From: an uncultured Polyangiaceae bacterium
GTDB lineage: Bacteria > Myxococcota_A > Polyangia > Polyangiales > Polyangiaceae
Direction: 5' to 3'
NCBI GenBank assembly: GCA_964437785.1
Contig: CAYTJL010000078.1
Coordinates: 1-36,312, forward strand
DNA length: 36,312 bases
Shown one piece after another: positions 2,213 through 26,025 of the stretch. The notes under the pieces were generated by a model. The model searched no databases. It saw only the letters and a program-made list of their open reading frames with translations, and was not told where the DNA came from. Within the stretch, counting starts at the first letter, position 1. Each line of letters opens with the position of its first letter. A program made the translations under genes and the position numbers.

Positions 2213-2217
2213 AGCGC

Positions 2218-3588
2218 GTGGCCGATCTGGTCGTCTCGCCCGCACAAACGCCGCTCCTCGGGAGCGTGCCCGTCCCCGGCGACAAAAGCATCGCGCACCG
2301 CGCGCTCATGCTCGCCGCCATCACCTCGGGCGTGACCCACGTCGAAGGCGGCGCGCTCGGCGGCGACAACCGATCCACCCTCGCGGCGCTGCACGCGCTC
2401 GGCGTTCGATCCGAGGCCCGCGGCGAGGCCTCGTTCGCGATCCACGGCGTCGGGCTCGACGGGCTCTCCGCGCCCACGGAGCCCATCGACTGCGGCAACT
2501 CCGGCACGACCATGCGCCTCCTCGCCGGGCTCCTCGCCGCGCAGCGCTTCGCGACCACGCTCACCGGTGACGCGTCGCTCTCCAAGCGCCCCATGGAGCG
2601 CATCGCGAAGCCGCTCCGCCTCCGCGGCGCGCGCATCGAGGGCAAGCTCGATCTCGCGCGGCCCGGCGACTGCACCGCGCCGCTCCACGTGGGCCCGCTG
2701 CCCGCGCCGCACATGCTCGGCCCGATCGAATACGAGATGCCGATCGCGAGCGCGCAGGTGAAGAGCGCCATCCTCCTCTCGGGCCTCTGGGCCGACGGGA
2801 GCACGTGGGTGCACGAGCCCATCGTCTCGCGCGATCACACCGAGCGCATGCTCCACGCGCTCGGCGTGCCCGTGCGATCGATGGGTCCGATCGTCGAGCT
2901 GTCCCCCGAAGGTTGGTCGCGAAAGCTCCCCGGATTTTCGATCCGCGTGCCCGGCGATCTCTCGTCCGCCGCGTTCCTCGTGGCCGCCGCGCAGATCGTC
3001 CCCGGGAGCCGCGTGGACGTGCGCCGCGTCGGCGTGAACCCGACGCGCGTAGGCCTCCTCGAGATCCTCCGCGACATGGGCGCCGCGTGCGAGATCGAGG
3101 CGCAGGGCGACGAGCTGGGCGAGCCCGTGGGCCATCTCCACGCGGCCTACGCCGAGCTCCGCGCGTTCCGCGCAGGCGGCGAGCGCGTAACGCGCGCCAT
3201 CGACGAGATCCCCATCGCCTGCGCCCTCGCGGCGCGCGCGCGCGGCACGACCGAGATCAGCGACGCGGCCGAGCTCCGCGTCAAAGAGAGCGATCGGATC
3301 GCGTCCATGGCGCGCACGCTCCGCGCGTTCGGCGTCGCGTGCGAGGAGAGGCCCGACGGGCTCACCATCGAGGGCGTGCCGGACAGGCCGCTCCGCGCGG
3401 CCGTCGTCGAGAGCGGCGGCGATCACCGCGTGGCCATGACCGCGGTCGTGATGGGCCTCGTCGCCGACGGCCCGACGCGCGTCATCGACGCGGACAACAT
3501 CACCACGAGCTTCCCCAAATTCGTCGGGACGCTGCGCGCGCTCGGCGCCTCCATCGAGGTCGTAGAGAGCCGGGAGAGATCGTCATGA
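2218..3588 (+). CDS. aroA: 3-phosphoshikimate 1-carboxyvinyltransferase (EPSP synthase)
   Basis: Translation from the in-frame GTG at 2218 gives VADLVVSPAQTPLLGSVPVPGDKSIAHRALMLAAITSGVTHVEGGALGGDNRSTLAALHALG...CGNSGTTMRLLAGLLAAQ...LRVKESDRIASMA, the diagnostic EPSP synthase motifs. The six-frame ORF 784..3588 is an artefactual 5' extension. The stop overlaps the cmk start (ATGA). Confidence 0.85.
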   Translation: MADLVVSPAQTPLLGSVPVPGDKSIAHRALMLAAITSGVTHVEGGALGGDNRSTLAALHALGVRSEARGEASFAIHGVGLDGLSAPTEPIDCGNSGTTMRLLAGLLAAQRFATTLTGDASLSKRPMERIAKPLRLRGARIEGKLDLARPGDCTAPLHVGPLPAPHMLGPIEYEMPIASAQVKSAILLSGLWADGSTWVHEPIVSRDHTERMLHALGVPVRSMGPIVELSPEGWSRKLPGFSIRVPGDLSSAAFLVAAAQIVPGSRVDVRRVGVNPTRVGLLEILRDMGAACEIEAQGDELGEPVGHLHAAYAELRAFRAGGERVTRAIDEIPIACALAARARGTTEISDAAELRVKESDRIASMARTLRAFGVACEERPDGLTIEGVPDRPLRAAVVESGGDHRVAMTAVVMGLVADGPTRVIDADNITTSFPKFVGTLRALGASIEVVESRERSS

Positions 3589-4337
3589 GCCAAGCACGAA
3601 GGCGCGTCCGCGTCGCGATCGACGGCCCCGCGGGCGCCGGCAAGAGCACCGTCGCGCGCGGCCTCGCGCGGAGGCTCGGCTACCTCCTGCTCGACACGGG
3701 CGCGCTCTACCGCACGGTCGCGCTCGCCGCGCAGCGCGAGGGCATCGCGTGGGAGGACGACGATCGCGTGGGCGCGCTCGCCGCGTCGCTCGCGCGCGAG
3801 GACGCGATCCGCGCGGAGCCCAGCGAGTCCGCGCCCACCAGCATCGGGCCCGGCTTGCCCGCGCACGCCGCGGGCGGCAGCGGGATGCGCGTGCTGCTCC
3901 GCGGCGAGGACGTGTCGATGCTCATCCGCGCGCCCGAGATGAGCCTCGGCGCGAGCCGCGTCTCGGCCATCCCCGCGGTGCGCGCGGCCCTGCTCGCGAT
4001 GCAGCGCCGCGCGGGCGAAGAGGGCGGCGTGGTGCTCGAAGGTCGCGACATCGGCACCGTGGTGATGCCCGACGCCGAGGCTAAGTTCTTCCTCACCGCA
4101 TCGGTCGAGGTGCGCGCCAAGCGCCGCTACGACGAGCTCGTCGCGCGCGGCAAAGAGGTGAGCCTCGCGCAGACCGAGCGCGAGGTGAAAGAGCGCGATC
4201 GCGCGGACACGGAGCGCCCCGTCGCGCCGCTCAAACGCGCGGACGACGCGCTGCTCGTCGATTCGAGCGGCCGCGCGATCGACGAGATCATCGAGGAGAT
4301 GGCCCGTGTCGTCGAAGATCGCGCGGAGCGCTCGTAG
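3585..4337 (+). CDS. cmk: Cytidylate kinase
   Basis: MSQARRRVRVAIDGPAGAGKSTVARGLARRLGYLLLDTGALYRTVALAA contains the P-loop GPAGAGKST and the Cmk signature. The downstream GRDIGTVVMPDA...FLTASVEVRAKRR and ERDRADTERPVAPL match the Cmk family. An insertion of about 50 aa sits in the middle. The ATG at 3585 overlaps the aroA stop. Confidence 0.88.
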   Translation: MSQARRRVRVAIDGPAGAGKSTVARGLARRLGYLLLDTGALYRTVALAAQREGIAWEDDDRVGALAASLAREDAIRAEPSESAPTSIGPGLPAHAAGGSGMRVLLRGEDVSMLIRAPEMSLGASRVSAIPAVRAALLAMQRRAGEEGGVVLEGRDIGTVVMPDAEAKFFLTASVEVRAKRRYDELVARGKEVSLAQTEREVKERDRADTERPVAPLKRADDALLVDSSGRAIDEIIEEMARVVEDRAERS

Positions 4338-5226
4338 CATCGCGCTCGCCGCGGCGTGCATCGCTGCGGCGGGGTGCGGCGGGAAAGGCGACAAACCGCC
4401 GGCCGCCTCCGGCGCGCGCGTCGTGCGCGATCTCTCGCCCGACGAGCTGCTGCCCGTCGATCTCGATCTCGTGATCCGCATCGACGTCGGCCGTATGCGC
4501 GCGGGGCTCGGCCAAGACGCGGTCGGGGCGCTGCGCGATCGCGCGATGAAGGGCGAGGCCGACGCGGAGCTGTCGCGCGCGCTCGAGCACGCGGACGTGG
4601 TCTGGATCGCCGCGCGCGTCGGCGAGATGGACCTCGGCGATCGCGTCGTCGTGGTCGAGGGCAAGGGCGCCGCGAGCCCGCCCTCACGCAGCTTGTATTC
4701 GAGCGCGCCGTCGCCGAACGGCAAGGTGACGATCTTCGATCGCCGCGGGGACGTGCCGCGCGCGGGCTTCTCGCGCCTCGTGCTGCTCGGCGATCGCGCG
4801 GTCGCGTTCGTCTCGCCCGTCGAGCGCGACGCGGTCGCGCGCGTGCTCGACGGCGGGGCCGATCAAAAGCGTGGCGTGCCTTCGCAGCGCGGGATCGTGA
4901 GCGCGGATCTGCGCGTCAAGAACCTCTCCCCCAAGCTCGCGCGCGAGTTCCCGTCGCTCGCGCGCATCGTGGCCGGCGTCGATCGGGTCCGCGCGAGCGC
5001 CGTGCTCGAAGGCGACGGTCTCCGCATCGACGGCGAGATCCTCGCGCGGTCCCCCGCGGAGGGCAAGCGCACCGCCGCGTACGTCGCCGCCCTCCTCGAC
5101 AGCCTCAAAGAGAGCAAATACGCGGGCGTTGTAGGGGAGCACGCGGTCGAGGACGTCGAGGGCACCGTGCGCCTCAAGTGGATCGTGCCGGCCAAGGCCC
5201 TGCTCAAGCTCCTCGGCGACACCTGA
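4306..5226 (+). CDS. Hypothetical lipoprotein
   Basis: N-terminus MSSKIARSARSIALAAACIAAAGCGG has an n-region, an h-region and a lipobox (AAG-C). The start lies 32 bp inside the cmk 3' end. No recognisable catalytic motif. Confidence 0.55.
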   Translation: MSSKIARSARSIALAAACIAAAGCGGKGDKPPAASGARVVRDLSPDELLPVDLDLVIRIDVGRMRAGLGQDAVGALRDRAMKGEADAELSRALEHADVVWIAARVGEMDLGDRVVVVEGKGAASPPSRSLYSSAPSPNGKVTIFDRRGDVPRAGFSRLVLLGDRAVAFVSPVERDAVARVLDGGADQKRGVPSQRGIVSADLRVKNLSPKLAREFPSLARIVAGVDRVRASAVLEGDGLRIDGEILARSPAEGKRTAAYVAALLDSLKESKYAGVVGEHAVEDVEGTVRLKWIVPAKALLKLLGDT

Positions 5227-5278
5227 AGAGCGGGCCGAAACTTGTCCTCGGACCCCGAGCGGTGCTTAGCTCGCACCG

Positions 5279-5842
5279 ATGCGCCCGTCCGTGCTCCTGC
5301 CGCTCGCTCTGCTCCTCGCCTCCTGCGGCGGGAGCGAATGGAAGGCCGAAGACCCGGACTGGTCGCCGGAGCCCGAAGAGAACGTCGGCCGCGGCAGGCG
5401 CGTCGCGTCGATGGGCAAGCCCACGCTCGCGCCCTCGTCGTTCTACGGCGTCCGGCACGATCTGATGCTCTCGAGCTCGCCGCACCCCGCGCGTTGCTCG
5501 TGCCTCGCGGTCGAGGTCGGATCCCCGCGCGATCCGCAGTTCTTTTGGACGGGCAGCCCTCCCTCGCCGAGCTCGGACGCGCTGGCGATCGCCATCGGCG
5601 CCCGCGGCGTCCCGTGCCCTGGTGGGCCGCCTGACGATCGGCGCAGGCCCAGCATCTCCGCGGTCGATCAGCACAACGACGACGTCATCGTCGAGGTTGA
5701 GGATCTGCCTGAGACCCGTCCGCTCGCGTCGGGCGCGATCATCCCCAAGCCGTCGGGGGCGGGCTCGATCTACATCCGGCCGCGCGAGGGTCGCTCTCCG
5801 TACGGGCGCGGCCCGGGCAACGCGCTCTGCAAGGTGCGCTGA
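5279..5842 (+). CDS. Hypothetical lipoprotein (187 aa)
   Basis: MRPSVLLPLALLLASCGG has a lipobox LAS-C. GC3-rich. No known domain recognised. Confidence 0.45.
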   Translation: MRPSVLLPLALLLASCGGSEWKAEDPDWSPEPEENVGRGRRVASMGKPTLAPSSFYGVRHDLMLSSSPHPARCSCLAVEVGSPRDPQFFWTGSPPSPSSDALAIAIGARGVPCPGGPPDDRRRPSISAVDQHNDDVIVEVEDLPETRPLASGAIIPKPSGAGSIYIRPREGRSPYGRGPGNALCKVR

Positions 5843-5898: not shown

Positions 5899-6888
5899 AT
5901 GGCGGACGACACCTGGTCCAAAGATCTCCTGGAGAACCCAGGGACGGTGCTCGGCTACATCCCGGAGGCGCCGCGATCGGCGATCAGCGCGAAGGACGCG
6001 TTCATCGTGGCCTACGATCGGCTCGCGGGCCTCGGCCGCATCGCCAAGCAAAGGGCGATGATCGCGGTCGCCGTCGACGCGCGCTCGCGCGTGGTCGAGG
6101 GCGTCGTGATCGAAGATCGCACGACCCTCGTGATGGGCCGCCATTCGCGATGCGGGCTGCGCTTGCCCGCGGAGTCCATCTCGCTCCGGCATCTCCTCGC
6201 GCTCGTCCGCTTCGAAGGGCAGAGCCCCGTCACGCGGCTCTGGGATCTCAACACCGAGCAGCCGTTCCTCACCGAGGACATGAGCACCAACGCCGCCGTC
6301 GTCGCCGAGGGCCCCATCTTCGTGATGGTCGGCGAGTACAGCGTGTGGTTCATCCCGAGCACGGGCGTCGGCAAGAGCGGCTGGCCCGATCGCGCGGAGG
6401 ACGCGTGGGGCGCGCTCCCCGATCGGTGCTTCATCGATCGCCGCGCGCCGGGCGTGCGCCGCCCCGAGCGGCTCATCGAGAGCCGCGCCGCGGGGATCCA
6501 CGACGAGATCACCATGATCACGTCGGTGCGGTCGCCGCTCCTCCTCGGCGACGACGAGCCCGAGATCGCGTGGGGCGAGGTCCGCGTCGCGTCCGGCACG
6601 TCGCGGTGGCGCCGCAGGATCTCGGCCGAGCGGCTGGAGCGCGGCGTGCTCGTGGGCCGCTACGATCGCTGCGGGCTGCTCGTCGCGAACGACACGCACG
6701 TCTCGCGCGTGCACCTCTTGCTCGTGCGGATCGACCGCGAGGTGTGGGCGATCGACACCGGGAGCACCAACGGGATCTTCAAGGAGAACCAAGTCTTCGA
6801 GGCCGCGGTGCTCGACGACTCGGCCACGTTGTACCTCGGCGAGGTCACGTCGCTCGCGTGGGAGCGCATCGTCCACGCCGAGGCGTGA
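5899..6888 (+). CDS. Tandem FHA-domain protein
   Basis: Two FHA-like cores are present: LVMGRHSRCGLRLPAESISLRHLLALV...TRLWDLNTEQP and VLVGRYDRCGLLVANDTHVSRVHLLLVRIDREVWAIDTGSTNGIFKEN. The second has the canonical GR...S(R)xH...D.GSTNG..N pattern. Confidence 0.7.
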   Translation: MADDTWSKDLLENPGTVLGYIPEAPRSAISAKDAFIVAYDRLAGLGRIAKQRAMIAVAVDARSRVVEGVVIEDRTTLVMGRHSRCGLRLPAESISLRHLLALVRFEGQSPVTRLWDLNTEQPFLTEDMSTNAAVVAEGPIFVMVGEYSVWFIPSTGVGKSGWPDRAEDAWGALPDRCFIDRRAPGVRRPERLIESRAAGIHDEITMITSVRSPLLLGDDEPEIAWGEVRVASGTSRWRRRISAERLERGVLVGRYDRCGLLVANDTHVSRVHLLLVRIDREVWAIDTGSTNGIFKENQVFEAAVLDDSATLYLGEVTSLAWERIVHAEA

Positions 6889-10592: not shown

Positions 10593-13466
10593 ATGACGGC
10601 ACTCCGCGGCGAGATCCAAGAACCTCCTTCGCAGCAGTCGCCTCTTAAAACGGCCGGCGACGAGAAGGCGCGCGCACGCGAGCGCATCGGCTCGGTGATC
10701 AGCGACAAATACAAGCTGGACTCGCTCCTCGGCGTCGGCGGCATGGCCTCGGTTTATTCGGCCGTCCACACGCGAACGGGATCCCGCAAAGCGCTCAAGA
10801 TCCTGCACACGGAGCTCGCGCACGATCGCGCCATCACGGACCGCTTCCTGCGCGAAGGCCGCGTCCCGAACCGCATCAACCACCGCGGTCGCGTGGCGAT
10901 CGACGACGACGGCTTCACCGATCACGGCGAGCCCTACCTCGTCATGGAGCTACTCGAAGGCGAGACCGCGCAGGCGCTCTGGAAGCGCAGGAGCAGGCGC
11001 CTCCCCATCGGCGAGGCGCTGTGGATCGCGAGCGAGGTGCTCGACGTGCTCGAGGCCTTCCACAAAGAGAAGATCGTCCACCGCGACATCAAGCCCGCGA
11101 ACATCTTCATCACGGGCGACGGCGTCGTGAAGATCTTGGACTTCGGCGTAGCCCGCATGCACGAGGCGCACAGCGACAAGACGCACGCGGGCACCGCGCT
11201 CGGGACGCCTTCGTTCATGGCGCCCGAGCAGGCCATGGGGCTCATCGACGGCATCGACGGGCGCGCCGACGTCTTCTCCGTGGGCGCGACGCTCTACGCG
11301 CTCCTCTCGGGCCAGCGGCTCCACCAAGGGCGCAGCGACAACGAGGCGTTCATCCTCGCGGCGACGCAGCCCGCGCCTTCGCTCGCGCGCGTCGCGCCCG
11401 AGCTGCCCATCGAGGTCGTGGGCTTGGTCGACAAGGCCCTCGCGTGGGATCAACGCAGCCGCTTCCAGACCGCGGCGCTCATGCGCGACGAGTGCGTGCG
11501 GCTCATGGAGCAGCACAGCGAGGGCGCGCCGCAGGCGGGCGCGCGCGTCGCGAAGCGCGAGGAGCGCGTTCGAAAGGCCGAGGCCGCGGCGCTCCCCATC
11601 GTCGAAGAGATGCAGGAGACCGAGGAGCAGGACGCCGAGGCGACCGATCCGCAGGTCGTCGCGCTCGTCGATCTGTTCCGCCGGTGGGAGCGCCTCCTGC
11701 CCACCGTGCGCCACTACGGGTGGGCGCACCCCGAGACGGACAACAAGCTACGCGCCACGTACCAAGGCGTGATGGAGGCGCTGCGCGCCGATCCGACCGC
11801 CGTCCACTGGATGCTCAAGCCCTACGCGTTCCTCCATCGCGGCCAGACCGTGTGGGAGCCCGAGCCGCCGCTCGATGCGGTCCCGTATCACCTGTTCGCC
11901 GCGGGCATCCGCCGCATCGAGCTCACGCCCGGCTTCTCCGAAGAGGAGATGCAGAACCTCTGCGAGGTGATGCTGCTCGATCCCGCGGTCGATCTCGCGC
12001 CGGAGGACGACGTCGCCGCGGCGCTCTGGGAGCGCAGGCTCGAGCACGTGCGCTACGACGCCATCAACGTGTTCGCCGAGGGCGACGCCGCCGACCGCGA
12101 GGAGTTCTGGGCCGAGGCCGACGACCTCGAAGAGCTCGCGCGCAAGGCCGCGAGCGAGGAGCGCGCCAACCGCGTCGAGGCGGCGGCCATGGCGATCGAG
12201 ACCGATCAGGCGGCGCTCCGCGCGGCGAGGCAGGCCGCGTCCGCGCTCGCGCTCGATCCGGTCGCGCGCAAGGCGCTCGGCGCGCAGCTCGGCATGACGC
12301 CCGAGCGGTGGACCGAGCGCTTCGTCGACGTGATGGCCGAGGCGATCCTCGACGCCAAGCGGAGGAACGATCTCTCGCTGGTGCTGGAGCCGCTCGACGC
12401 ATCCACGCGCGACCTCGTCCTCCAGCGTCGCTTCGATCTCGCGTTCTCGATGTTCGACGCGCTCGCGAAGGCGATCGAGGCGAGCGCCCCTCGAACGGCG
12501 CCGGGCAGCGGTCGACGCACGCAGCCGGTGGCGATGAACGACAGCGCGCAGGCGCTCAAGGCCGAGCTCGCGTGCGGGATGTTCTCGCCCGAGACGCTGC
12601 GGCTCCTGCTCCGTGAGGCCACGCGCGCGGCGCCGCGGAGCGCGCTCGGCGAGCCGCTCCCCGAGGTCGATCTCGACGCGCTCGCGCGCGACATGATGCC
12701 CGTCATCGCGGCCTTCGGACCTTCGCACCTGGAGGTGATCCTCGACATCGTCGCGGCCGTCCCGCACGAGGGGCTGCGCCGCGTGCTCTTCGGCTATTTG
12801 GAGCGCGTCTTGCCGGGCCGCGAGGCCGAGGTCGTCGACAAGCTGATGACGGTCGACGTCGACGTCGCGCGGCCGATCCTCAAGATCTTCGCCGCGATCC
12901 GCACGGCGAGCGCGACCGAGGCGCTGCGGAGGCTCGCCGGGTGCGCGAACGCGCTCCTGCGGTGCGAGGCGACGGCGCAGCTCGCGATGACCGCCGATCA
13001 GCTCAAGGACGATCTGCTCGCGCTCTCCGAGGCGCAGCAGCCCGAGGTGCGCGTCGCGGCGCTCCGCACGCTCGCGCACCATCAGGTGAAGGCGGCGGGG
13101 CCGCTGCTCGTCCGCAAGGCGCAGGAGGCGTCGTTCGTGAAGCTCACGCTCGACGAGCGGCGCGAGATCCTCTCCGCGCTCTTCGTGCTCCACCCCGTGC
13201 GCGGCGAGCAGGTGTCCATCGAGCTGCTCCAAAAGAAGAGCCGCCTCGGGACGGACGACGCGCTCGAACAAACACGCTTGCTCGCGGCCGATCTCTTGAG
13301 CCGCGAGGGCCGATCGCCGGAGGCGCTCAACGCCGCGATCGCCGCGAGCAAAGGCGGGTTCTTGAGCGGCAACAGCCCGGCGCTGCGCGAGCGCGCGCTC
13401 GCCGCCGCGCACGCGATCGCGGCGCGCCTCGGCAAGACGCTCACCGAGAGCGGGGAGCTCACGTGA
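10593..13466 (+). CDS. Ser/Thr protein kinase (Hanks-type) with long C-terminal helical/HEAT-like region
   Basis: YKLDSLLGVGGMASVYSAVHTRTGSRKALKIL (Gly-loop and VAIK-like K), HRDIKPANIFI (catalytic loop), ILDFGVAR (DFG) and GTPSFMAPEQ (APE). The C-terminal ~600 aa is helical with HEAT-like units (EVRVAALRTLA). The stop overlaps the next gene's GTG (GTGA). Confidence 0.88.
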   Translation: MTALRGEIQEPPSQQSPLKTAGDEKARARERIGSVISDKYKLDSLLGVGGMASVYSAVHTRTGSRKALKILHTELAHDRAITDRFLREGRVPNRINHRGRVAIDDDGFTDHGEPYLVMELLEGETAQALWKRRSRRLPIGEALWIASEVLDVLEAFHKEKIVHRDIKPANIFITGDGVVKILDFGVARMHEAHSDKTHAGTALGTPSFMAPEQAMGLIDGIDGRADVFSVGATLYALLSGQRLHQGRSDNEAFILAATQPAPSLARVAPELPIEVVGLVDKALAWDQRSRFQTAALMRDECVRLMEQHSEGAPQAGARVAKREERVRKAEAAALPIVEEMQETEEQDAEATDPQVVALVDLFRRWERLLPTVRHYGWAHPETDNKLRATYQGVMEALRADPTAVHWMLKPYAFLHRGQTVWEPEPPLDAVPYHLFAAGIRRIELTPGFSEEEMQNLCEVMLLDPAVDLAPEDDVAAALWERRLEHVRYDAINVFAEGDAADREEFWAEADDLEELARKAASEERANRVEAAAMAIETDQAALRAARQAASALALDPVARKALGAQLGMTPERWTERFVDVMAEAILDAKRRNDLSLVLEPLDASTRDLVLQRRFDLAFSMFDALAKAIEASAPRTAPGSGRRTQPVAMNDSAQALKAELACGMFSPETLRLLLREATRAAPRSALGEPLPEVDLDALARDMMPVIAAFGPSHLEVILDIVAAVPHEGLRRVLFGYLERVLPGREAEVVDKLMTVDVDVARPILKIFAAIRTASATEALRRLAGCANALLRCEATAQLAMTADQLKDDLLALSEAQQPEVRVAALRTLAHHQVKAAGPLLVRKAQEASFVKLTLDERREILSALFVLHPVRGEQVSIELLQKKSRLGTDDALEQTRLLAADLLSREGRSPEALNAAIAASKGGFLSGNSPALRERALAAAHAIAARLGKTLTESGELT

Positions 13467-16400
13467 GCGGCGGCAAGCGATCGATCCCGCCTCCTTCGTT
13501 GGGCCGCCGCGCGCCGCCCACGCCGGCGCTCGGCGAGCCGTTCCCCACGAGCGTCCCCGGGCGCGCGCTGCGCACGCCTTCGTCTAAGCCTCCCGCGCCG
13601 GGATCCATCGCTCCGCAGGACGCGGGCTCGCTCGACGTGATGAGCCAGAACGCGGGCCAGAACGTGCGCAAGGTGCACGCGCGCGAGCTCGCGTCGGCCG
13701 TCGTCACCGGCCTCTTCCGCTTGGTCAAGCTCGCCACGCTGCACTCGCTCGACAACCAGGCCATGGTCCGGCAAGTCGACGAGATGGTGCAGCTCGTGAG
13801 CGAATACGGGCAGCGCACCGAGCACAACGTCTCGATCTTGTTCGCGCACGGATCGGTCTTCGTCGGCGGGCAGCTCCTCCGCGCGAACCGCGGCATCTAC
13901 GAGGGCGCGCTCGAGCTCGGCGATCTCTTGCACAAGATCGACGCCGCCGAGATCGGCATCATGCGCGACGCGACCGCGGGCGATTTCTACGCGTTCGCGT
14001 CGTCGATGGCCGAGGCGCTCCGGCAGGCCAAGCCCGCGCCGATCCGCAGGCCATCGCCGCGCATTTTGCTCCGCAGCATGAGCGCCGCCGCGCTCCTCCG
14101 CGAGGGGATGGTCACGTCGGAGCGCACCGATCCCAACGTGCAGGTCTCGCGCATCTACGCGTCGGCGGTCGTCATCATGCGGCGCTTCCTCGAAGATCTT
14201 CGCCGCGGAAAATACGATCTCCCGCAGCGGGTCAAGCGCGTGGCGCAGCGGCTCGTCGATCTCTCCACGGGCGAGACGCCGGCGTTCCTCGGCGTGACGT
14301 CGGCGCGCAACGCCAACCACGACGACGCGGGGCGCGCGGTCAACACGGCGATCCTCGCGCTCGCGATGACGCGCCAAGTGTCGACCGACATGGTCCAGCT
14401 CTCGCGCGTCGCGATGGCCGCGCTGCTCTACGACTGCGCGCGCGCGCGCAACGCGGGCGTCGTCGGCTTGACGGGGCCCGCCGCGTCGGCGGTGATCCCG
14501 CAGCTCAGCGAGCAGCAAGAGGCCGCCGCGCCCGCGGGCACGGCGGTGGTCCTCACCGCGCTCGGCCGCGTGAACGAGCCCAGCGTGATGCGCACCGTGA
14601 TCGCGTTCGAGGCGCAGTGGGAGCGGCGCAAGGTGAGGCTCGGTCCGCTCTACCGCGGCCTGCGCCAGCCGAGCCTTCAAGCGCGCGTCATCGCCGTCGC
14701 GCGCGCGTACAACGATCTCTTGACGCCTTCGCCCGGGCAGCAGGCGCTGAGCGCGGACGAGGCGATCGCCAAGCTCCAGGCCGAGGCCACCGAGCCCACC
14801 GATCGCACCGTGCTCCGCCTCCTCGTCGGCGCGCTCGGCATCTTCCCCACCGGCACGGTGGTGCAGCTCTCGACCGGCGAGGTCGCGCTCATCCTTCGCG
14901 CGCCGGCGAACCCGGCGCTCTACGGGCAGCCCAAGGTCCAGATCGTCATGGACGCGTCGGGCGGGCATCTCGCGCGTCCGATCGAGCTCGATCTGTCCGC
15001 CAAGCGACGCTCCGGCGAGCCCCTCCGCCAGATCACCAAGGTGCTCGCGACCTCGGACGATCCGCAGTCGGCGCAGCTCCGCGCGTGGGCATCCGGCGCA
15101 TCCGGCGCGTCGAACGCATCGAGCGCGCCGAACGCATCGAGCGCGCCCGCCGCGCGCGAGGCGGTGTTCGCGACGCCGTTGCCTCCTCCGCCCGCACAGG
15201 AGGCTCCGCGCCAACGCGACACCAAGACACCGCACCGTCAGGTCGAGGTGCGCGCGGTCGAGGCGCCGCCCGACTCGCGCCGCGCGCATGGGCTCGAGCT
15301 CCCGAGCTCGCCGCCCACCGCCGAGGGCGATCTCAAGAAGACGCCGTTCGCGCACCTGCTTGTTTACATGCTCGATCGCAAGCTCACGGGCACCACGCTC
15401 CTGCGCGGCGAAGAGGGCGCGATCCACGCGGTGTATTTCTTCGAGGGCGCGCCCGCCAAGGTCCGCACCGGCACGCCCATCGCGCCGCTCGATCGGGTGC
15501 TGCTCGATCAAGGTCTGCTCGACGAGACCACGCTCCGCGGCACGCTGCTCGAGATCAAGAAGCGCAACATCTTGCACGGGCGCTTCCTCGTGATGAAGGG
15601 CCTCCTCGATCGCGACACGATCATCGCCGCGCTCCGCGTGCAGCTCCTCCGCAAGGTGACGCATCTCTTCGAGCTCCCTGCGTCGACGCGGTACGCGTAC
15701 TACGAGGGCAAGAACCTCATCGCGTCGTGGGGCGGCCCCGAGCTGATGCCGTGCGAGCCGCTCGCGGTGATCATGGCCGGCATCCGGCAGCGCGCGACCG
15801 ATCCGATCGTCGACGGCACCATCGCGCGCTTCGGCAGCCGCACGCTCTCGATCCACCCGGACGCGGAGGTGAAGCGCTTCGTGCTCCAGCGCGACGAGCG
15901 CGCGGTGGTCGACATGCTCCGCGCGCGACCGTCGACGTTGAGCGCGCTGCTCGAGTCGGGCGCCGCGCAGGATCGCGTGGTCCGCTACATGATCTATGCG
16001 CTCGCGGTGACGCGGCACCTCGACTTCGGCAAGCCGCCGATCGGCATCCAGCGCGATTGGCCTGCGGTGATCGATCAAACCACGGGCCAAGCGATCCCTT
16101 CATCGGCGCTCGCGGGGCCCGCCATCAGCGAGCCCGAGCCGGCGTCGTCGAGGATCCCGCGGACCACCACCAAGATGCAGCGCGTGAACCCCACGCCCGC
16201 GGAGCCCGCGAAGCCGATCGCGCCCACGATGCCCAAGCACGCTTCGTCGCCCGCGACGCCCCCCGTGACGCCGAAGCCATCGTCCGCCGACGAAGCGCCG
16301 CACTCCAAGCCAACGACCAAGCTCCCGCGCGTCACCGCGCCGGACGCTGAACCTCCTTCGTCTCGCGCGCCTGTTGACGTGGGTCGCTCAGTCGCCGACG

Positions 16401-17359
16401 CGAGGTCCGCGGCCGCGCCCAAGACACCTGAGCCGCCGCCCGCCAGGCCCAAGACACCTGAGCCGCCGCCCGCCAAGCCCAAGGCGCCCGCGCAGCAGGC
16501 TGCTTCGCCCGAGCCGCCGTCGGCCGCGAGCCCCACGCCGCCGGCCGCGAGCCCCGCGCCGCCGGCCAAGCCCAAGCCCGATTTGGCCGCGCGACGCGTG
16601 GAGATCCAGCGCCGCGCGGCGAGCATCGACAGCGAAGACTTCTTCCAGATGCTCGGCGTGCCCCGCGACGCGACGAACGAAGAGGTGAAGGCCGCGTTCG
16701 TGAGCCTCGTCAAGGTGTGGCACCCGGATCGCCTGCCCGCCGATCTCGCGGAGCTGAAGCCGGACACGTCGCGCGTCTTCGCTCGCATCTCCGAGGCGAA
16801 CCAGACGCTCTCCGATCCGAGCAAGCGCGCGAGCTACGCGCGCATGTTGGAGCAGGGCGCGATCCGCAACGAAGATCCTTCGGAGGTCGCGCGCGCGGTG
16901 GACGCGGCGCTCGAATTCCAAAAGGCGGAGATCCTCCTCAAGAAGAACGATCTCGCGGGCGCGGAGGCGCTCGCCAAGCGCGCGTCGGACGCCGATCCCG
17001 AGCAGCCCGAATACAAGACGTTGCTCGCGTGGATCCAAGCGCTTCGGAGGCCGGATCCGCCCGGCGCCGCCGAGGGCGTGCCGTCGCGCCACTTCGACGA
17101 TCTCATCAAGGTGCTCGACGACGTCATCTCGAACGAGCCTCGCTACGAGCGCGCGCTCTATTACCGCGGGATGCTCCACAAGCGCTCGGGCAGGCTCGAT
17201 CGCGCCATCCGTGATTTTCGCCTCGTGGCCGAGGTGAACCCCAGGAACATCGACGCGGTCCGCGAGGTGAGGCTCTTCGAGATGCGCCGCCGCACCGGCC
17301 CGTCGCCCAAAGATCCGCCGGACGGCGGCGGGCTCTTCGGCAAGTTCTTCAAGCGCTGA
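13463..17359 (+). CDS. Multidomain protein: N-terminal module / degenerate HD-GYP-like region / DUF4388-like region / Pro-rich linker / DnaJ J-domain / TPR-like C-terminus (~1298 aa)
   Basis: In-frame GTG at 13463 overlaps the kinase stop; the six-frame ORF 12941.. is a 5' extension into the kinase. Motifs: VIAVARAYNDLLTPSPGQQALSADEAIAKL and GIFPTGTVVQLSTGEVALIL (HD-GYP C-terminal-like). DLKKTPFAHLLVYMLDRKLTGTTLLRGEEGAIHAVYFFEG (DUF4388-like). EDFFQMLGVPRDATNEEVKAAFVSLVKVWHPDR...RISEANQTLSDPSKRASY (J-domain with HPD). The C-terminal helical repeats are TPR-like. Confidence 0.7.
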   Translation: MSGGKRSIPPPSLGRRAPPTPALGEPFPTSVPGRALRTPSSKPPAPGSIAPQDAGSLDVMSQNAGQNVRKVHARELASAVVTGLFRLVKLATLHSLDNQAMVRQVDEMVQLVSEYGQRTEHNVSILFAHGSVFVGGQLLRANRGIYEGALELGDLLHKIDAAEIGIMRDATAGDFYAFASSMAEALRQAKPAPIRRPSPRILLRSMSAAALLREGMVTSERTDPNVQVSRIYASAVVIMRRFLEDLRRGKYDLPQRVKRVAQRLVDLSTGETPAFLGVTSARNANHDDAGRAVNTAILALAMTRQVSTDMVQLSRVAMAALLYDCARARNAGVVGLTGPAASAVIPQLSEQQEAAAPAGTAVVLTALGRVNEPSVMRTVIAFEAQWERRKVRLGPLYRGLRQPSLQARVIAVARAYNDLLTPSPGQQALSADEAIAKLQAEATEPTDRTVLRLLVGALGIFPTGTVVQLSTGEVALILRAPANPALYGQPKVQIVMDASGGHLARPIELDLSAKRRSGEPLRQITKVLATSDDPQSAQLRAWASGASGASNASSAPNASSAPAAREAVFATPLPPPPAQEAPRQRDTKTPHRQVEVRAVEAPPDSRRAHGLELPSSPPTAEGDLKKTPFAHLLVYMLDRKLTGTTLLRGEEGAIHAVYFFEGAPAKVRTGTPIAPLDRVLLDQGLLDETTLRGTLLEIKKRNILHGRFLVMKGLLDRDTIIAALRVQLLRKVTHLFELPASTRYAYYEGKNLIASWGGPELMPCEPLAVIMAGIRQRATDPIVDGTIARFGSRTLSIHPDAEVKRFVLQRDERAVVDMLRARPSTLSALLESGAAQDRVVRYMIYALAVTRHLDFGKPPIGIQRDWPAVIDQTTGQAIPSSALAGPAISEPEPASSRIPRTTTKMQRVNPTPAEPAKPIAPTMPKHASSPATPPVTPKPSSADEAPHSKPTTKLPRVTAPDAEPPSSRAPVDVGRSVADARSAAAPKTPEPPPARPKTPEPPPAKPKAPAQQAASPEPPSAASPTPPAASPAPPAKPKPDLAARRVEIQRRAASIDSEDFFQMLGVPRDATNEEVKAAFVSLVKVWHPDRLPADLAELKPDTSRVFARISEANQTLSDPSKRASYARMLEQGAIRNEDPSEVARAVDAALEFQKAEILLKKNDLAGAEALAKRASDADPEQPEYKTLLAWIQALRRPDPPGAAEGVPSRHFDDLIKVLDDVISNEPRYERALYYRGMLHKRSGRLDRAIRDFRLVAEVNPRNIDAVREVRLFEMRRRTGPSPKDPPDGGGLFGKFFKR
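15090..15147 (+). repeat. In-frame tandem short repeats (9-bp x2 and 18-bp x2) encoding ASGASGASNASSAPNASSAP linker
   Basis: catccggcg catccggcg followed by gaacgcatcgagcgcgcc x2, seen directly in the sequence inside the 13463..17359 CDS. Confidence 0.7.
16418..16558 (+). repeat. In-frame tandem repeats encoding Pro-rich linker (30-bp unit x2 plus partial; 21-bp unit x2)
   Basis: cccaagacacctgagccgccgcccgccagg / cccaagacacctgagccgccgcccgccaag (16418-16477, 1 mismatch) encodes PKTPEPPPA(R/K). ccg(t/c)cggccgcgagcccc(a/g)cg x2 (about 16517-16558) encodes PSAASPTPPAASPAPPA. Confidence 0.75.
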
Positions 17360-17378: not shown

Positions 17379-18041
17379 TCAGTTGACGTCGCGCGGATCG
17401 GACGACAGCGCGAGGTGCTGCAGCGCGAGCACCTCGGCGACGCGGCGGACACGATCGCGCGCGTCGAGCATCTCGAGGACCGCTTGTCGCTCGCGCACGT
17501 CGAGCACGAGCTGGTGCGCGCACAGATCCGCGAGCGCGTGGGCCGGCGCGTCTTTGGGCAGCGAGAGCTCGAGCTCGGGATCGCGCTCGCGCACGCGCGC
17601 GGCGAACGCGCCCGCGGCGGAGAGCATGGTCGAGATGTCGGCCGGCGAGACGTCCTTCTTGCCTTCGAGCACGGTCGCGCGCGCCCTGCGATAAGGCGTC
17701 TTTGGCTTGCCCGTGGCCTCGTCCACGAAGGGCAGCTCGTGGAGCCGCACGCGCGCGACGCCCTTCACCAAGACGTTGTAGCGACCGCTCGGCAGCTCCA
17801 CGTGATCGACGATGATCCCTGCGCCCGCGACCTCGGCGATGGGCGGGTGACCGTGCTCGTCGGCGCCGGCGGGATCGGTGATGAGCACGATCGCGAGCGC
17901 GCGGTGCGTGTCGAGCGCGTGGCGGATCATCACGCGATAACGAGGCTCGAAGATGTGCAGCGGCATGAGCGCGCCGGGGAGCAGGACGGCGGGCAGCGGG
18001 AAGAGCGGCAGCTCCGGGAGCGCGGTGGCGAGATCAACCAT
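17379..18041 (-). CDS. Stand-alone Lon N-terminal (LON substrate-binding) domain protein
   Basis: LPLFPLPAVLLPGALMPLHIFEPRYRVMI and ...RYNVLVKGVARVRL...ERQAVLEMLDARDRVRRVAEVL match the Lon N-domain (E. coli Lon [27 protein letters not shown]...KQSVLEMSDVNERLEYL). There is no AAA+ or protease part. Confidence 0.72.
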   Translation of the reverse strand: MVDLATALPELPLFPLPAVLLPGALMPLHIFEPRYRVMIRHALDTHRALAIVLITDPAGADEHGHPPIAEVAGAGIIVDHVELPSGRYNVLVKGVARVRLHELPFVDEATGKPKTPYRRARATVLEGKKDVSPADISTMLSAAGAFAARVRERDPELELSLPKDAPAHALADLCAHQLVLDVRERQAVLEMLDARDRVRRVAEVLALQHLALSSDPRDVN

Positions 18042-22951: not shown

Positions 22952-24886
22952 TTATCGGCGGACGCGCTCGCGATCGCGCTGCGCGACCGACGCAGGCCCG
23001 CCGATCGCGCGGAGCGCCTTGCACACGACGCTGTCGGCGCACGGCCCGACCCTGTTGCTAGGGCTGGGCCAAGGCACCTCGCGCACGAGCGCGGGATCGC
23101 GCACGTCGGGCCCGCGCCAAGGTTCGAGCGCGCGGATCAGGTGCGCCTCGCGCTCGCCTGTGGATGGCAACGAGAGACGCACGCTCGGCGTGATGCCGAC
23201 CTTCTGCACCGGAGCTCCGTCGGGCAAGCTGAAGATCAGCGTGGTCAAGCGCAGCACGCCCATGTGCGTGTCGTCGTCCAGGTACTCCTGCGCGCAGCCT
23301 TTGCCATAGGTCTTGTCGCCCACCACCACGGCGCGGCGATAGGCGCCGAGCGCGCCCGCGATCATCTCGGCGGCGCTCGCGGTGTCGCCGTCGACGAGCA
23401 CCGCGAGCGGGCCGGCGTAACGACGATCGGCGGCGCCTTCGGGCGCGCGCTCCATCTCGATGACGCCGTCCCTGCGGCGCATGGGGAAGAGCGCGGCGCC
23501 GGGGATCAAGAGGCCGAGCGCGTCGGCAGCGCCGTCGGTGGAGCCGCCGCCGTTGGCGCGCAGATCGAGCATCACGCCGCGAAGATCCTGGTGCTGCTTG
23601 GCGAGCGCGAGCGCGTCGCCGAGCCTCGCGCCGAGATCGTCCGGCACGTCCGCGGCCGTGATGAGCGCGACCGTCCCTTCGCCGTAGCGCACGAAATCGA
23701 TCGGCAAATCGGCCGTACCCGTGCTCACCGCCGCGACCTTGGCGGCCGGCGCGACGACGAGCTCCTTCGGTCCGGCGGCGCCTTTGCGCAGGACGGTCAC
23801 GCGCACGGGGGAGCCCGAGCGCGCCTCCGCGATGACCGCGAGCTGCTCGGACTGCTCCACGCTGATGCCTGCGAGCGGCACATCGCGGACTCGAAGCACC
23901 AGGTCGCCGTCTTCGAGCGGAGGGAGCGCGCCGCGCTCGATCCTCGCCCCGAGGACCGCGCGGCTCATCTCCGACCAGATCCGCTCGGGGGGCGAAGACT
24001 CGAGCGCGAGGTCGTAAATCGACAGCTCCTCTTCGAGCGGCGCCCACGCGCCGTGCGCGTCGATCTGCGGGACGTACGCGCGCACCGCCGCGGCGAGCAC
24101 CACGCGCGACCACGTCGCGGCGTCGAAGCTCGGCGCGGTCCGCTCGCGCGCCGCCTCGATGTAAGGGCCCATCGATTTGCCGAAGACGCCCCGCGCGACG
24201 CCTGCGTCGCGGCCGATCCTCCGCGCCAGCTCGCGCGCCGTGTGCGTGAGCGGGCCCTCTTGGAACGGGATCGACGACGCCGCTCCGAACGCGTCGCTGA
24301 GCCGGAGCGCGCTCGCCTCACCGGCGCCCTCCTGCGCCCCTTCGTCGAAGATCAACGCCAGCTCCCCGGACCACGCTTGGAGGTCCTTGCCCAGCGCTTC
24401 GGCCGTCGAGCACGGGCCCGATCCGGCCGGCGCTTCGAGCTCGGTGAGGAGGCGTTCACGGGCTTTGCGCACCGTGGCCGCGACCGGAGCGTCGGGGGCC
24501 GCGGACCAAAGCCCGTTGGGATCGAGCCAGTCGATCAAGCCCTCGGCAAACTTTGCGGCGTCGATCGGCGGAGGATCGGACGCGAGGGTGCTGCGCGCCT
24601 GACGGACGATGCCGCGTGCGTCCTCGCAGGTGATGGATGCAGGTTTGCCGGACGGCAACGCGAGGCCGTGATCCGCGTTGAGCTGATCGGCCTGCGGCGG
24701 CTCGGCCTCGGCCACGACGCCGAGCCGCGCCTTGGCGACGCTCTCCGCGACGCCCTTCCGCGCCGCCTCGAAGGCGGGCTCGCAGGTCTCGGCCAGCGAT
24801 TGACGCTCGATCGAGCGGATCGAGAGCCCGATCAGAGCGGACCCCGTGAGGACCGAGGCGAGCGAAATGGCGATGCGCCGCCGCAC
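22952..24886 (-). CDS. S41-family C-terminal processing peptidase (tail-specific protease)
   Basis: GVMLDLRANGGGS, LAVLVDGDTASAAEMIAGAL and VVVGDKTYGKGCAQ are S41 signature blocks containing the catalytic Ser and Lys. N-terminal TM/signal MRRRIAISLASVLTGSALIGL. Confidence 0.8.
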   Translation of the reverse strand: MRRRIAISLASVLTGSALIGLSIRSIERQSLAETCEPAFEAARKGVAESVAKARLGVVAEAEPPQADQLNADHGLALPSGKPASITCEDARGIVRQARSTLASDPPPIDAAKFAEGLIDWLDPNGLWSAAPDAPVAATVRKARERLLTELEAPAGSGPCSTAEALGKDLQAWSGELALIFDEGAQEGAGEASALRLSDAFGAASSIPFQEGPLTHTARELARRIGRDAGVARGVFGKSMGPYIEAARERTAPSFDAATWSRVVLAAAVRAYVPQIDAHGAWAPLEEELSIYDLALESSPPERIWSEMSRAVLGARIERGALPPLEDGDLVLRVRDVPLAGISVEQSEQLAVIAEARSGSPVRVTVLRKGAAGPKELVVAPAAKVAAVSTGTADLPIDFVRYGEGTVALITAADVPDDLGARLGDALALAKQHQDLRGVMLDLRANGGGSTDGAADALGLLIPGAALFPMRRRDGVIEMERAPEGAADRRYAGPLAVLVDGDTASAAEMIAGALGAYRRAVVVGDKTYGKGCAQEYLDDDTHMGVLRLTTLIFSLPDGAPVQKVGITPSVRLSLPSTGEREAHLIRALEPWRGPDVRDPALVREVPWPSPSNRVGPCADSVVCKALRAIGGPASVAQRDRERVRR

Positions 24887-25197
24887 GCTCTCTTCATATC
24901 ACGCACGCTCGCCGAGAGAGAAAGGTGGGGCCGAAACAGACATTGTGTTGACACGAACACCACGCTCGGGGGTGCTTCGAGAGGCCGCTCGTTAGGGCGC
25001 TTCGAGATGCCCGCAAAGGTTGCGTTCTTGCTCGGGACCTCCCTCCGAGCTTGCGCGCTTTTTTGAGCCCTCGCGCAAAAGCCCACGCAACACGGTGCAA
25101 ATCGCGCGCGGCATCGACCCTGCATTACGCGCGTGTGCGCACGCCTTCGGCACGAAACGCGGGGAGCGACGGGACCTCGGGCGCGCGCGGAGGGCAC

Positions 25198-26025
25198 ATG
25201 CGTACGGCCACGGAGCGCGCGTCATTGTCGGTTTATCGGTCTGAGCTCGGAGGGAGGCTCACCCTCACGCCGGAGGTCGAGCGCGATCTTGCCGCTCGCT
25301 GGCGCGCCGGCGATCGCGACGCCGGCCGGAGGCTCGTCGAGGCGTGCCTCTCGTTCGTCATGACCATCGCGCTCGAATATCGCCGCTGGGGCCTGCCCAT
25401 CGAGGACATCGTTCAAGAGGGCAACATCGGTCTCCTCAAGGCCGCCGAGCGGTTCGACCCCGAAAAAGGCTGCCGGCTCGCCACCTACGCCGCGTACTGG
25501 ATCCGCGCCGAGATCCGCGAGTTCGTGGCGCGCGGCTACCGCATCGTGCGGCTCGGCTCGTCGAAGAGCGAGCGCCGCGCGCTGCGCATCTATCGCCGCA
25601 CGCACGAGAAGAGCCCCGAGGCGCTCGCGGAGCTGAGCGGCCTCTCGGCCGAGCGCGCGACCGAGCTGTTGCCGCTGCTCATGTCGCGCGACGTGAGCCT
25701 CGATCGCGTCCCCGAGGACGGCAAGGCCCCCATCGACAAGCTCACCGACGGCGCGCGATCGCCCGAGGAAGAGGCCTGCCTCTCGGACGAGCGATCGGCC
25801 ATCATCGAAGCGCTCCGGCAGGTCGTCAAGGAGCTCTCGCCGCGCGAGCGCGCCATCGTCGAGAGCCGATGGCTCACCGATCACCCGAAGACGCTCGAGC
25901 AGCTCGGCGAGACGTTCGGCGTGAGCAAGGAGCGCGTCCGCCAGCTCGAAGAGCGCGCCAAGAAGCTCATGCGCGAGCGCCTCACCGAGATCGTTGGCGA
26001 CGAGCCGCTCGCGCTCAGCGCGTGA
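25198..26025 (+). CDS. RNA polymerase sigma factor, RpoH (sigma-32)-like group 3
   Basis: It aligns along its length with E. coli RpoH: EDIVQEGNIGLLKAAERFDPEKG..ATYAAYWIRAEIREF (region 2), RIVRLGSSKSERRALRIYRR (RpoH box-like) and TLEQLGETFGVSKERVRQLEERAKKKL (region 4 HTH). I prefer the ATG at 25198 over the TTG at 25051 of the six-frame ORF. Confidence 0.8.
   Translation: MRTATERASLSVYRSELGGRLTLTPEVERDLAARWRAGDRDAGRRLVEACLSFVMTIALEYRRWGLPIEDIVQEGNIGLLKAAERFDPEKGCRLATYAAYWIRAEIREFVARGYRIVRLGSSKSERRALRIYRRTHEKSPEALAELSGLSAERATELLPLLMSRDVSLDRVPEDGKAPIDKLTDGARSPEEEACLSDERSAIIEALRQVVKELSPRERAIVESRWLTDHPKTLEQLGETFGVSKERVRQLEERAKKLMRERLTEIVGDEPLALSA

Follow-up and report, generated by a model that had tools for sequence, protein, structure and literature searches.

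Kinase and J-domain pairings and the Polyangiaceae locus

In eukaryotes, the co-chaperone P58IPK (DNAJC3) is a dedicated partner of the Ser/Thr kinases PKR and PERK and links a kinase to Hsp70, and GAK (auxilin-2) carries a kinase and a J-domain in one unit, through which Hsc70 is brought in to take apart an assembly at the membrane. DjlA of Escherichia coli is a type III J-protein, anchored in the membrane by an N-terminal transmembrane helix, that localizes DnaK activity, and myxobacteria possess very large kinomes together with many DnaK and J-protein paralogues. We analyzed a 36,312-nucleotide stretch of DNA (hereafter the window; G+C ~70%) from an uncultured Polyangiaceae bacterium (contig CAYTJL010000078.1), in which the gene of a Ser/Thr kinase (open reading frame 1, ORF1) overlaps the gene of a large multidomain protein that bears a J-domain (ORF2). 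Each of the described systems differs from this pair. P58IPK has its TPRs ahead of its J-domain, is without HD-GYP or PATAN domains, is not genetically coupled to a kinase and inhibits its kinase, whereas the order in ORF2 is reversed, with the J-domain before the TPRs. GAK consists of one polypeptide that also has PTEN-like and clathrin-binding regions, and the pair in the window is unrelated to it in sequence beyond the kinase and J-domain folds. The anchor of DjlA is an N-terminal transmembrane helix, whereas ORF2 has a C-terminal amphipathic tail.

We found no study of this cassette in the literature searched, and database labels for its proteins read only 'protein kinase', 'DnaJ domain-containing protein' or 'hypothetical protein'; all of its domains are of known type, and the cassette architecture itself is undescribed in that literature. 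We lean towards the interpretation that the two genes form a conserved operon whose products most likely act in one complex, in which both cyclic di-GMP (c-di-GMP)-type modules of ORF2, a degenerate HD-GYP domain and an MshEN_N-like insertion, serve as protein-interaction pseudo-enzymes or pseudo-receptors. If this is true, the pair would show a Ser/Thr kinase assigned to a specialized J-domain co-chaperone in a prokaryote, as well as HD-GYP and MshEN domains recycled jointly into pseudo-enzyme scaffolds. Such a hard-wired pair would also offer an entry point to how redundancy among kinases, DnaK and J-proteins is partitioned in myxobacteria (Myxococcus xanthus has 15 J-domain proteins; PMC11019930), with a J-less sister clade and a natural fusion as ready comparative controls. 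The pair is made up of the following features.

10593..13466, + strand: ORF1, 957 aa, a Ser/Thr kinase with a long extension C-terminal to the kinase domain; database protein P0121 has the same sequence
10710..11489, + strand: Hanks-type kinase domain, residues 40-299 (Pfam Pkinase)
11649..12062, + strand: alpha/beta middle domain of the kinase protein, residues ~353-490 (AlphaFold2 (AF2) model m3329d5ad2395, predicted local distance difference test (pLDDT) mostly >90)
12087..13430, + strand: HEAT/ARM-type alpha-solenoid with a helical-repeat fold, residues ~499-946
13452..13466, + strand: coupling junction, with a Shine-Dalgarno (SD)-like GGGGAG, a 5-nt spacer and GTGA (ORF2 start over ORF1 stop)
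13463..17359, + strand: ORF2, a 1298-aa multidomain scaffold and type III J-domain protein
13463..13639, + strand: N-terminal extension of ORF2, residues 1-59, Pro/Ser/Gly-rich and disordered, varying in length and sequence among orthologues
13640..14083, + strand: N-terminal alpha/beta sub-domain, residues 60-207 (AF2 model m2ee0d170e95b)
14084..14839, + strand: degenerate HD-GYP domain, residues ~208-459, with YD for the HD dyad (LLYDCARA), FEA for HHE and LYR for GYP
14846..14995, + strand: small beta domain 3' of the HD-GYP fold, residues ~462-511 (AF2 strands E407-451), conserved in the family
15323..16042, + strand: PATAN/DUF4388 module with a helical insertion and a conserved C-terminal extension, residues 621-860 (Pfam DUF4388 and family alignment)
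15485..15643, + strand: MshEN_N-type 'alpha-clip' insertion, residues 675-727, with two degenerate 24-residue c-di-GMP motifs
16043..16636, + strand: Pro/Ala/Ser/Thr-rich repetitive linker, residues 861-1058, 24% Pro, with PKTPEPPPA[RK] twice and ASPxPPA repeats
16637..16837, + strand: J-domain, residues 1059-1125 (Pfam DnaJ), HPD at 16721-16729
16904..17260, + strand: TPR region, residues 1148-1266 (TPR_19 and TPR_2; consensus TPR proteins also match)
17327..17356, + strand: amphipathic basic C-terminal tail GGLFGKFFKR, family consensus G-h-h-G-K-h-[FW]-K-[RK]-COOH

ORF1 matches the Pfam kinase model over residues 40-299 far above its cut-off (PF00069, 139.2 bits against 31.7, E 2.2e-40) and holds all of the kinase motifs, namely the Gly loop LGVGGMASVY, the Lys of ALKIL, HRDIKPANI, DFG and MAPE, in columns at least 90% conserved across 30 homologues, so it is apparently an active Hanks-type Ser/Thr kinase. 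Its C-terminus is a ~450-aa HEAT solenoid with a helical-repeat fold. An earlier note on this DNA, made from the letters alone, had listed the kinase, J-domain and TPRs, all of which we recovered, and had overlooked this solenoid along with the ~450-aa degenerate HD-GYP module, the MshEN insertion and the C-terminal tail of ORF2.

Overlap of the two genes and its conservation

Re-reading the window letters bore out the ORF coordinates, the GTGA overlap, the ~1298-aa length and the peptides that the note had quoted. At the junction (cacGTGAgc), the GTG of ORF2 (13463-13465), from which its 1298 aa are counted, overlaps the TGA of ORF1 (13464-13466), and the SD-like GGGGAG occupies 13452-13457, 5 nt 5' of this GTG. 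The G+C content at third codon positions (GC3) in the ORF2 frame is 0.3-0.67 before the junction, 0.86 over 13463-13639 and 0.94 in the conserved domain, and because it stands at 0.86 from 13463 onward, the low-complexity residues 1-59 of ORF2 look coding. Relatives have extensions of 0-60 aa that open in frame from the overlap start, with GC3 of 0.85-0.92. Neither a promoter-like site nor a + strand terminator-like site was found inside the gene pair, and an Rfam scan of the whole window gave zero matches at gathering thresholds. A programmed -1 frameshift that would make a kinase-ORF2 fusion was ruled out, since the ORF2 frame is non-coding-like 5' of 13463 (GC3 0.3-0.67) and a slippery heptamer was not seen.

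Homologues of ORF2 were found in Sorangium, Chondromyces, Minicystis, Labilithrix and Polyangiaceae metagenome-assembled genomes (MAGs), the best of them 56-57% identical to the window protein. A scan of species-representative genomes yielded 80 loci, 77 of which had upstream DNA, and in every one of the 77, all from the order Polyangiales of soil myxobacteria (Sorangium, Chondromyces, Byssovorax, Minicystis, Labilithrix and many MAGs), the gene just upstream and in the same orientation is an orthologue of the kinase, its C-terminal region included; the synteny comparison that the earlier note had called for thus found the pair together throughout. An in-frame start overlaps the kinase stop in 74 of these loci (38 ATGA, 30 GTGA and 6 TGATG). 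By its overlap, its SD-like element and its conservation in relatives, the pair is, as far as sequence can tell, translationally coupled. The ORF2 orthologue is interrupted at a few loci, by a stop after 758 aa in L009 (Minicystis rosea DSM 24000, CP016211.1) and after 201 aa in L004, and L025 has an aberrant C-terminus; tblastn still finds J/TPR-coding sequence downstream in all three, and the interruptions are frameshifts, sequencing errors or pseudogenization.

The family extends well beyond these loci. A phmmer search with the N-terminal module of ORF2 against 1.84 billion representative proteins returned 278 matches at E <= 1e-30, 470-1800 aa long, in which the module is nearly always N-terminal. 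Among the matches listed, the 142 representatives not retrieved earlier divided into 16 with PATAN, J-domain and TPR, 23 with PATAN and TPR, 18 with PATAN, and 85 with the module only or an unrelated C-terminus. Six distant pairs (31-38% identity) were looked up, and a stop/start overlap was present in five: four have a 910-992-aa kinase upstream with an overlap of 4 or 1 nt, one of the partners being a bare 494-aa module, and the fifth has an upstream HEAT_2 gene that is cut by the contig start and overlaps by 4 nt. In the sixth, the upstream protein is 590 aa long, has no kinase domain and is a homologue of the HEAT end of the window kinase (34% identity, E 3e-19); 30 nt separate its gene from that of the partner. 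The two proteins are also found joined: at L081 (positions 1092-5813 of JBNKKS010000090.1, assembly GCA_050291955.1) a single 1573-aa ORF runs through kinase, middle domain, first helical part, pseudo-HD-GYP module and PATAN, with 37% identity (E 1e-103) on the kinase side, E 6e-24 on the pseudo-HD-GYP/PATAN side and a coding signature that is continuous over the joint.

This distribution marks a HEAT-solenoid gene, with a usually overlapping gene for the pseudo-HD-GYP module behind it, as the most deeply conserved part of the family, and the kinase domain in gene 1 and the PATAN, TPR, J-domain and tail in gene 2 as lineage-specific additions. As no other pairing survives in the most distant members, the HEAT region of gene 1 would bind the pseudo-HD-GYP module of gene 2, and the coupling would set a fixed ratio of kinase and ORF2 protein. 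The conserved overlap, the strict adjacency across the order and beyond, and the Rosetta-stone fusion all argue for one functional unit, and the tight coupling of the two genes that the note had proposed stands on an overlap conserved order-wide and on this one natural fusion.

Could the two genes instead be merely adjacent, with independent products, the GTGA being a by-product of high G+C and the true start of ORF2 lying at ATG 13640? The window sequence does contain alternative starts (GTG 13637 and ATG 13640), residues 1-59 are low-complexity and little conserved, long open frames are frequent at 70% G+C, and certain orthologues start just a few residues ahead of the conserved domain. We nevertheless regard this as very improbable. 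The in-frame overlap start seen in 74 of the 77 loci recurs in distant relatives, the extensions have GC3 of 0.85-0.92, a natural kinase-partner fusion exists, and in most loci the conserved domain begins 17-26 nt past the kinase stop, so that another initiation site has no room there.

Degenerate HD-GYP and MshEN modules of ORF2

The first of the modules that we interpret as interaction surfaces is the ~450-aa HD-GYP region of ORF2, which has an HD-GYP fold and scores 23.0 bits against HD_5, below the Pfam cut-off of 27.2. The motif that defines HD-GYP domains, HHExh[D/N]GxGYP (bioRxiv 10.1101/2021.11.05.467447), is absent: the window reads FEAQWERRKVRLGPLYRG, and (Y/F)EA replaces HHE in all members examined, in a register set by inspection, Pfam HD_5 and a partial 5z7c alignment, not by a full structural alignment. 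The GYP position reads P(V/L)Y(R/W)G in the family, and its Tyr is nearly invariant. The metal-binding HD dyad, placed by the 5z7c alignment, is lost in the window (LLYDCARA) and appears as FD, YD or QD in the J clade and as HD solely in the J-less clade. With its catalytic signature gone, the module is probably catalytically dead. An 'unconventional' HD-GYP protein has been described in Bdellovibrio (Bd1817, PDB 3tm8; PMC3188283), but Bd1817 keeps its metal-binding residues, whereas ORF2 has lost the HHE motif and the HD histidine. The two also differ ahead of the HD-GYP fold: the N-terminus of Bd1817 is a DUF3391 domain of four strands followed by two helices, whereas the ORF2 sub-domain begins with two long helices, and this reversed order of elements rules out DUF3391 as the identity of the sub-domain.

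The second module lies within the PATAN/DUF4388 region. PF14332 (DUF4388) scores 16.8 bits on the whole window protein and 22.3 bits on the isolated segment, against a cut-off of 25, and at E <= 0.01 (2.8e-8 at best) it matches the corresponding segment in 22 out of 25 orthologues. We therefore accept the predicted PATAN assignment at the family level; the DUF4388 region claimed by the earlier note holds for the orthologues, although the window protein itself falls below the Pfam cut-off. A homologue search with the PATAN segment gave 8 fragments only. The Pfam match covers 156 residues for 117 profile positions, and the inserted stretch resembles MshEN_N repeats: a profile of the PATAN-region alignment matches Thermus thermophilus PilF at E 3.6e-17 and Vibrio cholerae MshE-N (5htl) at E 1.7e-6. 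A second PATAN/MshEN-like copy (GGTPLIHVLTYMLDHQATGTVVFQEPDGVQHVAYFENGAAAKVRTG...) was observed at the position of the J-domain in protein P0067 (alignment columns ~1400-1800), and such a copy is seen in some J-less orthologues.

The insertion is homologous to the MshEN domain of V. cholerae MshE and T. thermophilus PilF, but the tandem 24-residue motif of that domain is not conserved in ORF2, which makes ligand binding by the insertion doubtful. The motif is RLGxxhhxxGhhxxxxhxxxLxxQ, with a relaxed form of [RKPN]hGxxhhxx[GAS]hhxxxxhxxxhxx[QNKRYWST] (PMC5013675, Wang et al.), and in the window its RLG is replaced by PLD in the first repeat and by LHG in the second. Even the relaxed form matches nowhere in the window protein; 72 of 75 orthologues likewise give zero matches, and no orthologue gives two.

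A PATAN domain carrying the same two-repeat alpha-helical 'alpha-clip' MshEN_N-like insertion is shared by the ORF2 family, the cyanobacterial PatA-type regulators and M. xanthus SgnC. In the cyanobacterial PatA-type proteins PixE, PixG and LsiR, PATAN is a membrane-localizing protein-interaction output domain that binds PilB1 and PilC (bioRxiv 10.1101/2021.06.11.447907). PatA-type proteins are ~380-aa PATAN-receiver response regulators, whereas the PATAN of ORF2 is internal in 1298 aa and comes with no receiver domain. By analogy, PilB/PilC-type proteins would be a speculative target of ORF2. A myxobacterial precedent that connects c-di-GMP-type modules with Hsp70 is PilZ-DnaK (CdbS) of M. 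xanthus (PMC10313047); in the PilZ-DnaK proteins a functional receptor is joined to Hsp70 itself, whereas ORF2 would be a J-protein with dead modules.

These homologies raise the alternative that ORF2 is a cyclic-dinucleotide effector, in which the HD-GYP domain, the MshEN-like insertion or both bind c-di-GMP or cyclic GMP-AMP (cGAMP) and thereby gate the kinase or the J-domain. Apart from the HD-GYP fold and the MshEN_N homology themselves, the nearly invariant Tyr at the GYP-equivalent position fits this proposal, inactivated HD-GYP, EAL and GGDEF domains are known as receptors (PMC12448109; bioRxiv 10.1101/2021.11.05.467447), and fusions of MshEN to HD-GYP and to Ser/Thr kinases have been recorded (PMC5013675). 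The motif losses disfavor it, however: no member keeps the metal-binding HHE triad, the J clade has also lost the HD histidine, the relaxed MshEN pattern fails in most orthologues and never occurs twice, and comparable substitutions abolish binding by XpsE (PMC5013675). We consider c-di-GMP sensing, the main alternative use of these modules, to be unlikely. Under the interpretation that we prefer, the dead HD-GYP and MshEN modules would act neither as a phosphodiesterase nor as a classical receptor, and would instead offer surfaces for protein interaction.

J-domain, C-terminal tail and neighboring genes

The J-domain claimed by the earlier note is canonical. PF00226 (DnaJ) matches at E 4.3e-14 (52.8 bits against a cut-off of 27.8), phmmer against PDB J-domains gives E 6e-10 and weaker matches, 2y4t among them, and the hallmark residues lie at ORF2 positions 1086-1090 (WHPDR, with HPD at 1087-1089) and 1121-1125 (KRASY), the HPD being kept in 42 of 42 J-bearing orthologues. 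Just positions 1-75 of the 354 in TIGR02349 match, at 56 bits against a cut-off of 377, and the G/F region, zinc finger and C-terminal domains of class A and B proteins were not found. Because the J part alone of the DnaJ models matches, ORF2 is a class C (type III) J-protein and not DnaJ or CbpA. The TPR region also passes its Pfam cut-offs, with 28.9 bits against 25 for TPR_19 and 27.6 against 27 for TPR_2, as the note had anticipated. Short tandem repeats were confirmed at three sites in ORF2 (30-nt x2.2 at 16417-16483, 21-nt x2.5 at 16515-16567 and 18-nt x2.8 at 15097-15147), in line with its description of repeat-rich linkers, and the linker at 16043-16636 is, we infer, a candidate phospho-acceptor region.

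The C-terminal tail follows the J-domain closely in the family, being present in 41 of the 42 J-bearing orthologues and missing from 19 of the 20 J-less ones. It may target the membrane as a MinD-like helix, or it may be a peptide that Hsp70 binds in cis. The sole orthologue with the tail (GGLFGKWFKR) but no blastp-detectable J-domain is L073 (JAWKRE010000053.1), which in the tree is sister to the J-bearing L069 and may hold a decaying J-domain. Processing of the tail by the S41 peptidase encoded nearby is unlikely, as the tail ends in basic residues and the peptidase is probably exported, given its N-terminal signal- or membrane-anchor-like segment.

The earlier note had placed the J-domain at the center of the architecture, and the corresponding explanation is that the pair exists for phosphorylation-controlled recruitment of Hsp70, with the J-domain as the essential output and the remainder of ORF2 as a targeting scaffold. 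The canonical J-domain with its HPD intact wherever it occurs, the tight coupling with an apparently active kinase, the S/T/P-rich linker immediately ahead of the J-domain and an RpoH-like sigma factor gene close downstream in ~30 J-clade loci all favor this explanation. Among the 62 complete orthologues, however, 42 have the J-domain and 20 are without it, and these 20 retain the kinase, the overlap, the pseudo-HD-GYP module, PATAN and TPR. A midpoint-rooted neighbor-joining tree of the N-terminal module places the J-less proteins, except L073, in one clade nested among J-bearing clades. Partners in the wider family are mostly without both J-domain and PATAN, one being the 494-aa module alone. 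As a general account of the pair, Hsp70 control is thus possible but in our view not probable: the coupling and the canonical J-domain are real, and what the wider family keeps is the HEAT and pseudo-HD-GYP genes. Within the lineage of the window, phosphorylation-controlled Hsp70 recruitment is plausible, and the combination of intact kinase, S/T/P-rich linker and HPD J-domain makes kinase-modulated recruitment a reasonable output there.

The two-gene complex that we prefer can accommodate such an output. The kinase would phosphorylate ORF2, probably in its S/T/P-rich linkers, or the clients that ORF2 holds, and in the J-bearing lineage the J-domain would locally activate a DnaK paralogue and remodel what the PATAN and TPR modules hold, while the tail would tether the assembly to the membrane or serve as an in-cis Hsp70-binding peptide. 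A bolder version, which we offer as a long shot, is a bacterial counterpart of GAK/auxilin or of P58IPK-PKR. Here a HEAT-armed kinase and a membrane-tethered J-protein built on 'fossil' c-di-GMP modules would form a stoichiometric complex, with the dead HD-GYP domain as a kinase-docking pseudo-enzyme, so that DnaK assembles or dismantles a particular envelope-associated machine (such as a PilB/GspE-type ATPase to which the PATAN/alpha-clip module docks), or the nearby RpoH-like sigma factor is controlled.

Several points weigh against the complex as we picture it. We infer both the physical interaction of kinase and ORF2 and the phosphorylation of ORF2 from gene arrangement and domain content. 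The fusion turned up once among the 150 representatives listed, in a MAG contig of 6.4 kb. In their AF2 models, the kinase middle domain and the N-terminal sub-domain of ORF2 have an identical order of helices and strands, and hhalign places this comparison at the top of 20 controls (score 26.2 against 17.1 for the next-best unrelated control, P 0.0017), but the hhalign probability is just 15.7%; the similarity is weak and suggestive, and the two may be paralogous interaction modules with a paired interface. The tail has a hydrophobic moment of 0.66, and 16% of shuffles reach its amphipathicity, which is not statistically exceptional. Hsp70 recruitment is not a universal output, because 20 of the 62 complete orthologues are without a J-domain, and no Hsp70 gene was found when looked for in the window. 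A degenerate HD-GYP or MshEN domain might, moreover, still bind a nucleotide non-canonically.

The genes flanking the pair are housekeeping genes (aroA, cmk, HU, GTP cyclohydrolase I and YebC), and only two neighbors recur: a convergent gene for an S41 peptidase of the C-terminal-processing type (22955-24886, - strand) and the RpoH-like sigma factor gene (25051-26022, + strand; sigma-32 model E 7e-62). Both lie immediately 3' of the J gene in ~30 J-clade loci (L003, L006-L008, L010-L021, L023-L029, L035, L040, L041, L043, L049 and L059), are 5.6 kb away in the window and are not found there in the J-less clade. It would make biological sense for a J-protein to be linked with a sigma-32-like factor, and the proximity may be functional or merely inherited gene order.

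We also observed several genes in the window that are not tied to the pair. An FHA-domain protein (5899-6885, + strand, E 7e-11) is encoded 3.7 kb 5' of the kinase; FHA domains read phospho-Thr, and this gene is not conserved near the pair elsewhere. Convergent to the end of ORF2 is a gene for a 220-aa LON substrate-binding N-domain protein (17382-18041, - strand; PF02190, E 1e-31) that has no ATPase or protease part and is not kept beside the pair in other loci. The gene that directly follows the one for the RpoH-like sigma factor (26080-28545, + strand) encodes an 822-aa protein that matches MVP_shoulder at E 8e-25 and Vault_3 at E 2e-7, and no NCBIfam model; bacterial homologues of the major vault protein (MVP) are on record (bioRxiv 10.1101/872010). 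A Na+/H+ exchanger fused to a phosphotransferase system (PTS) EIIA-2 domain (32098-33807, - strand) is unrelated to the kinase/J-protein pair, and near the beginning of the window, positions 26-2209 (+ strand) encode a further, separate protein with HEAT_2 repeats (728 aa, E 2.7e-24).

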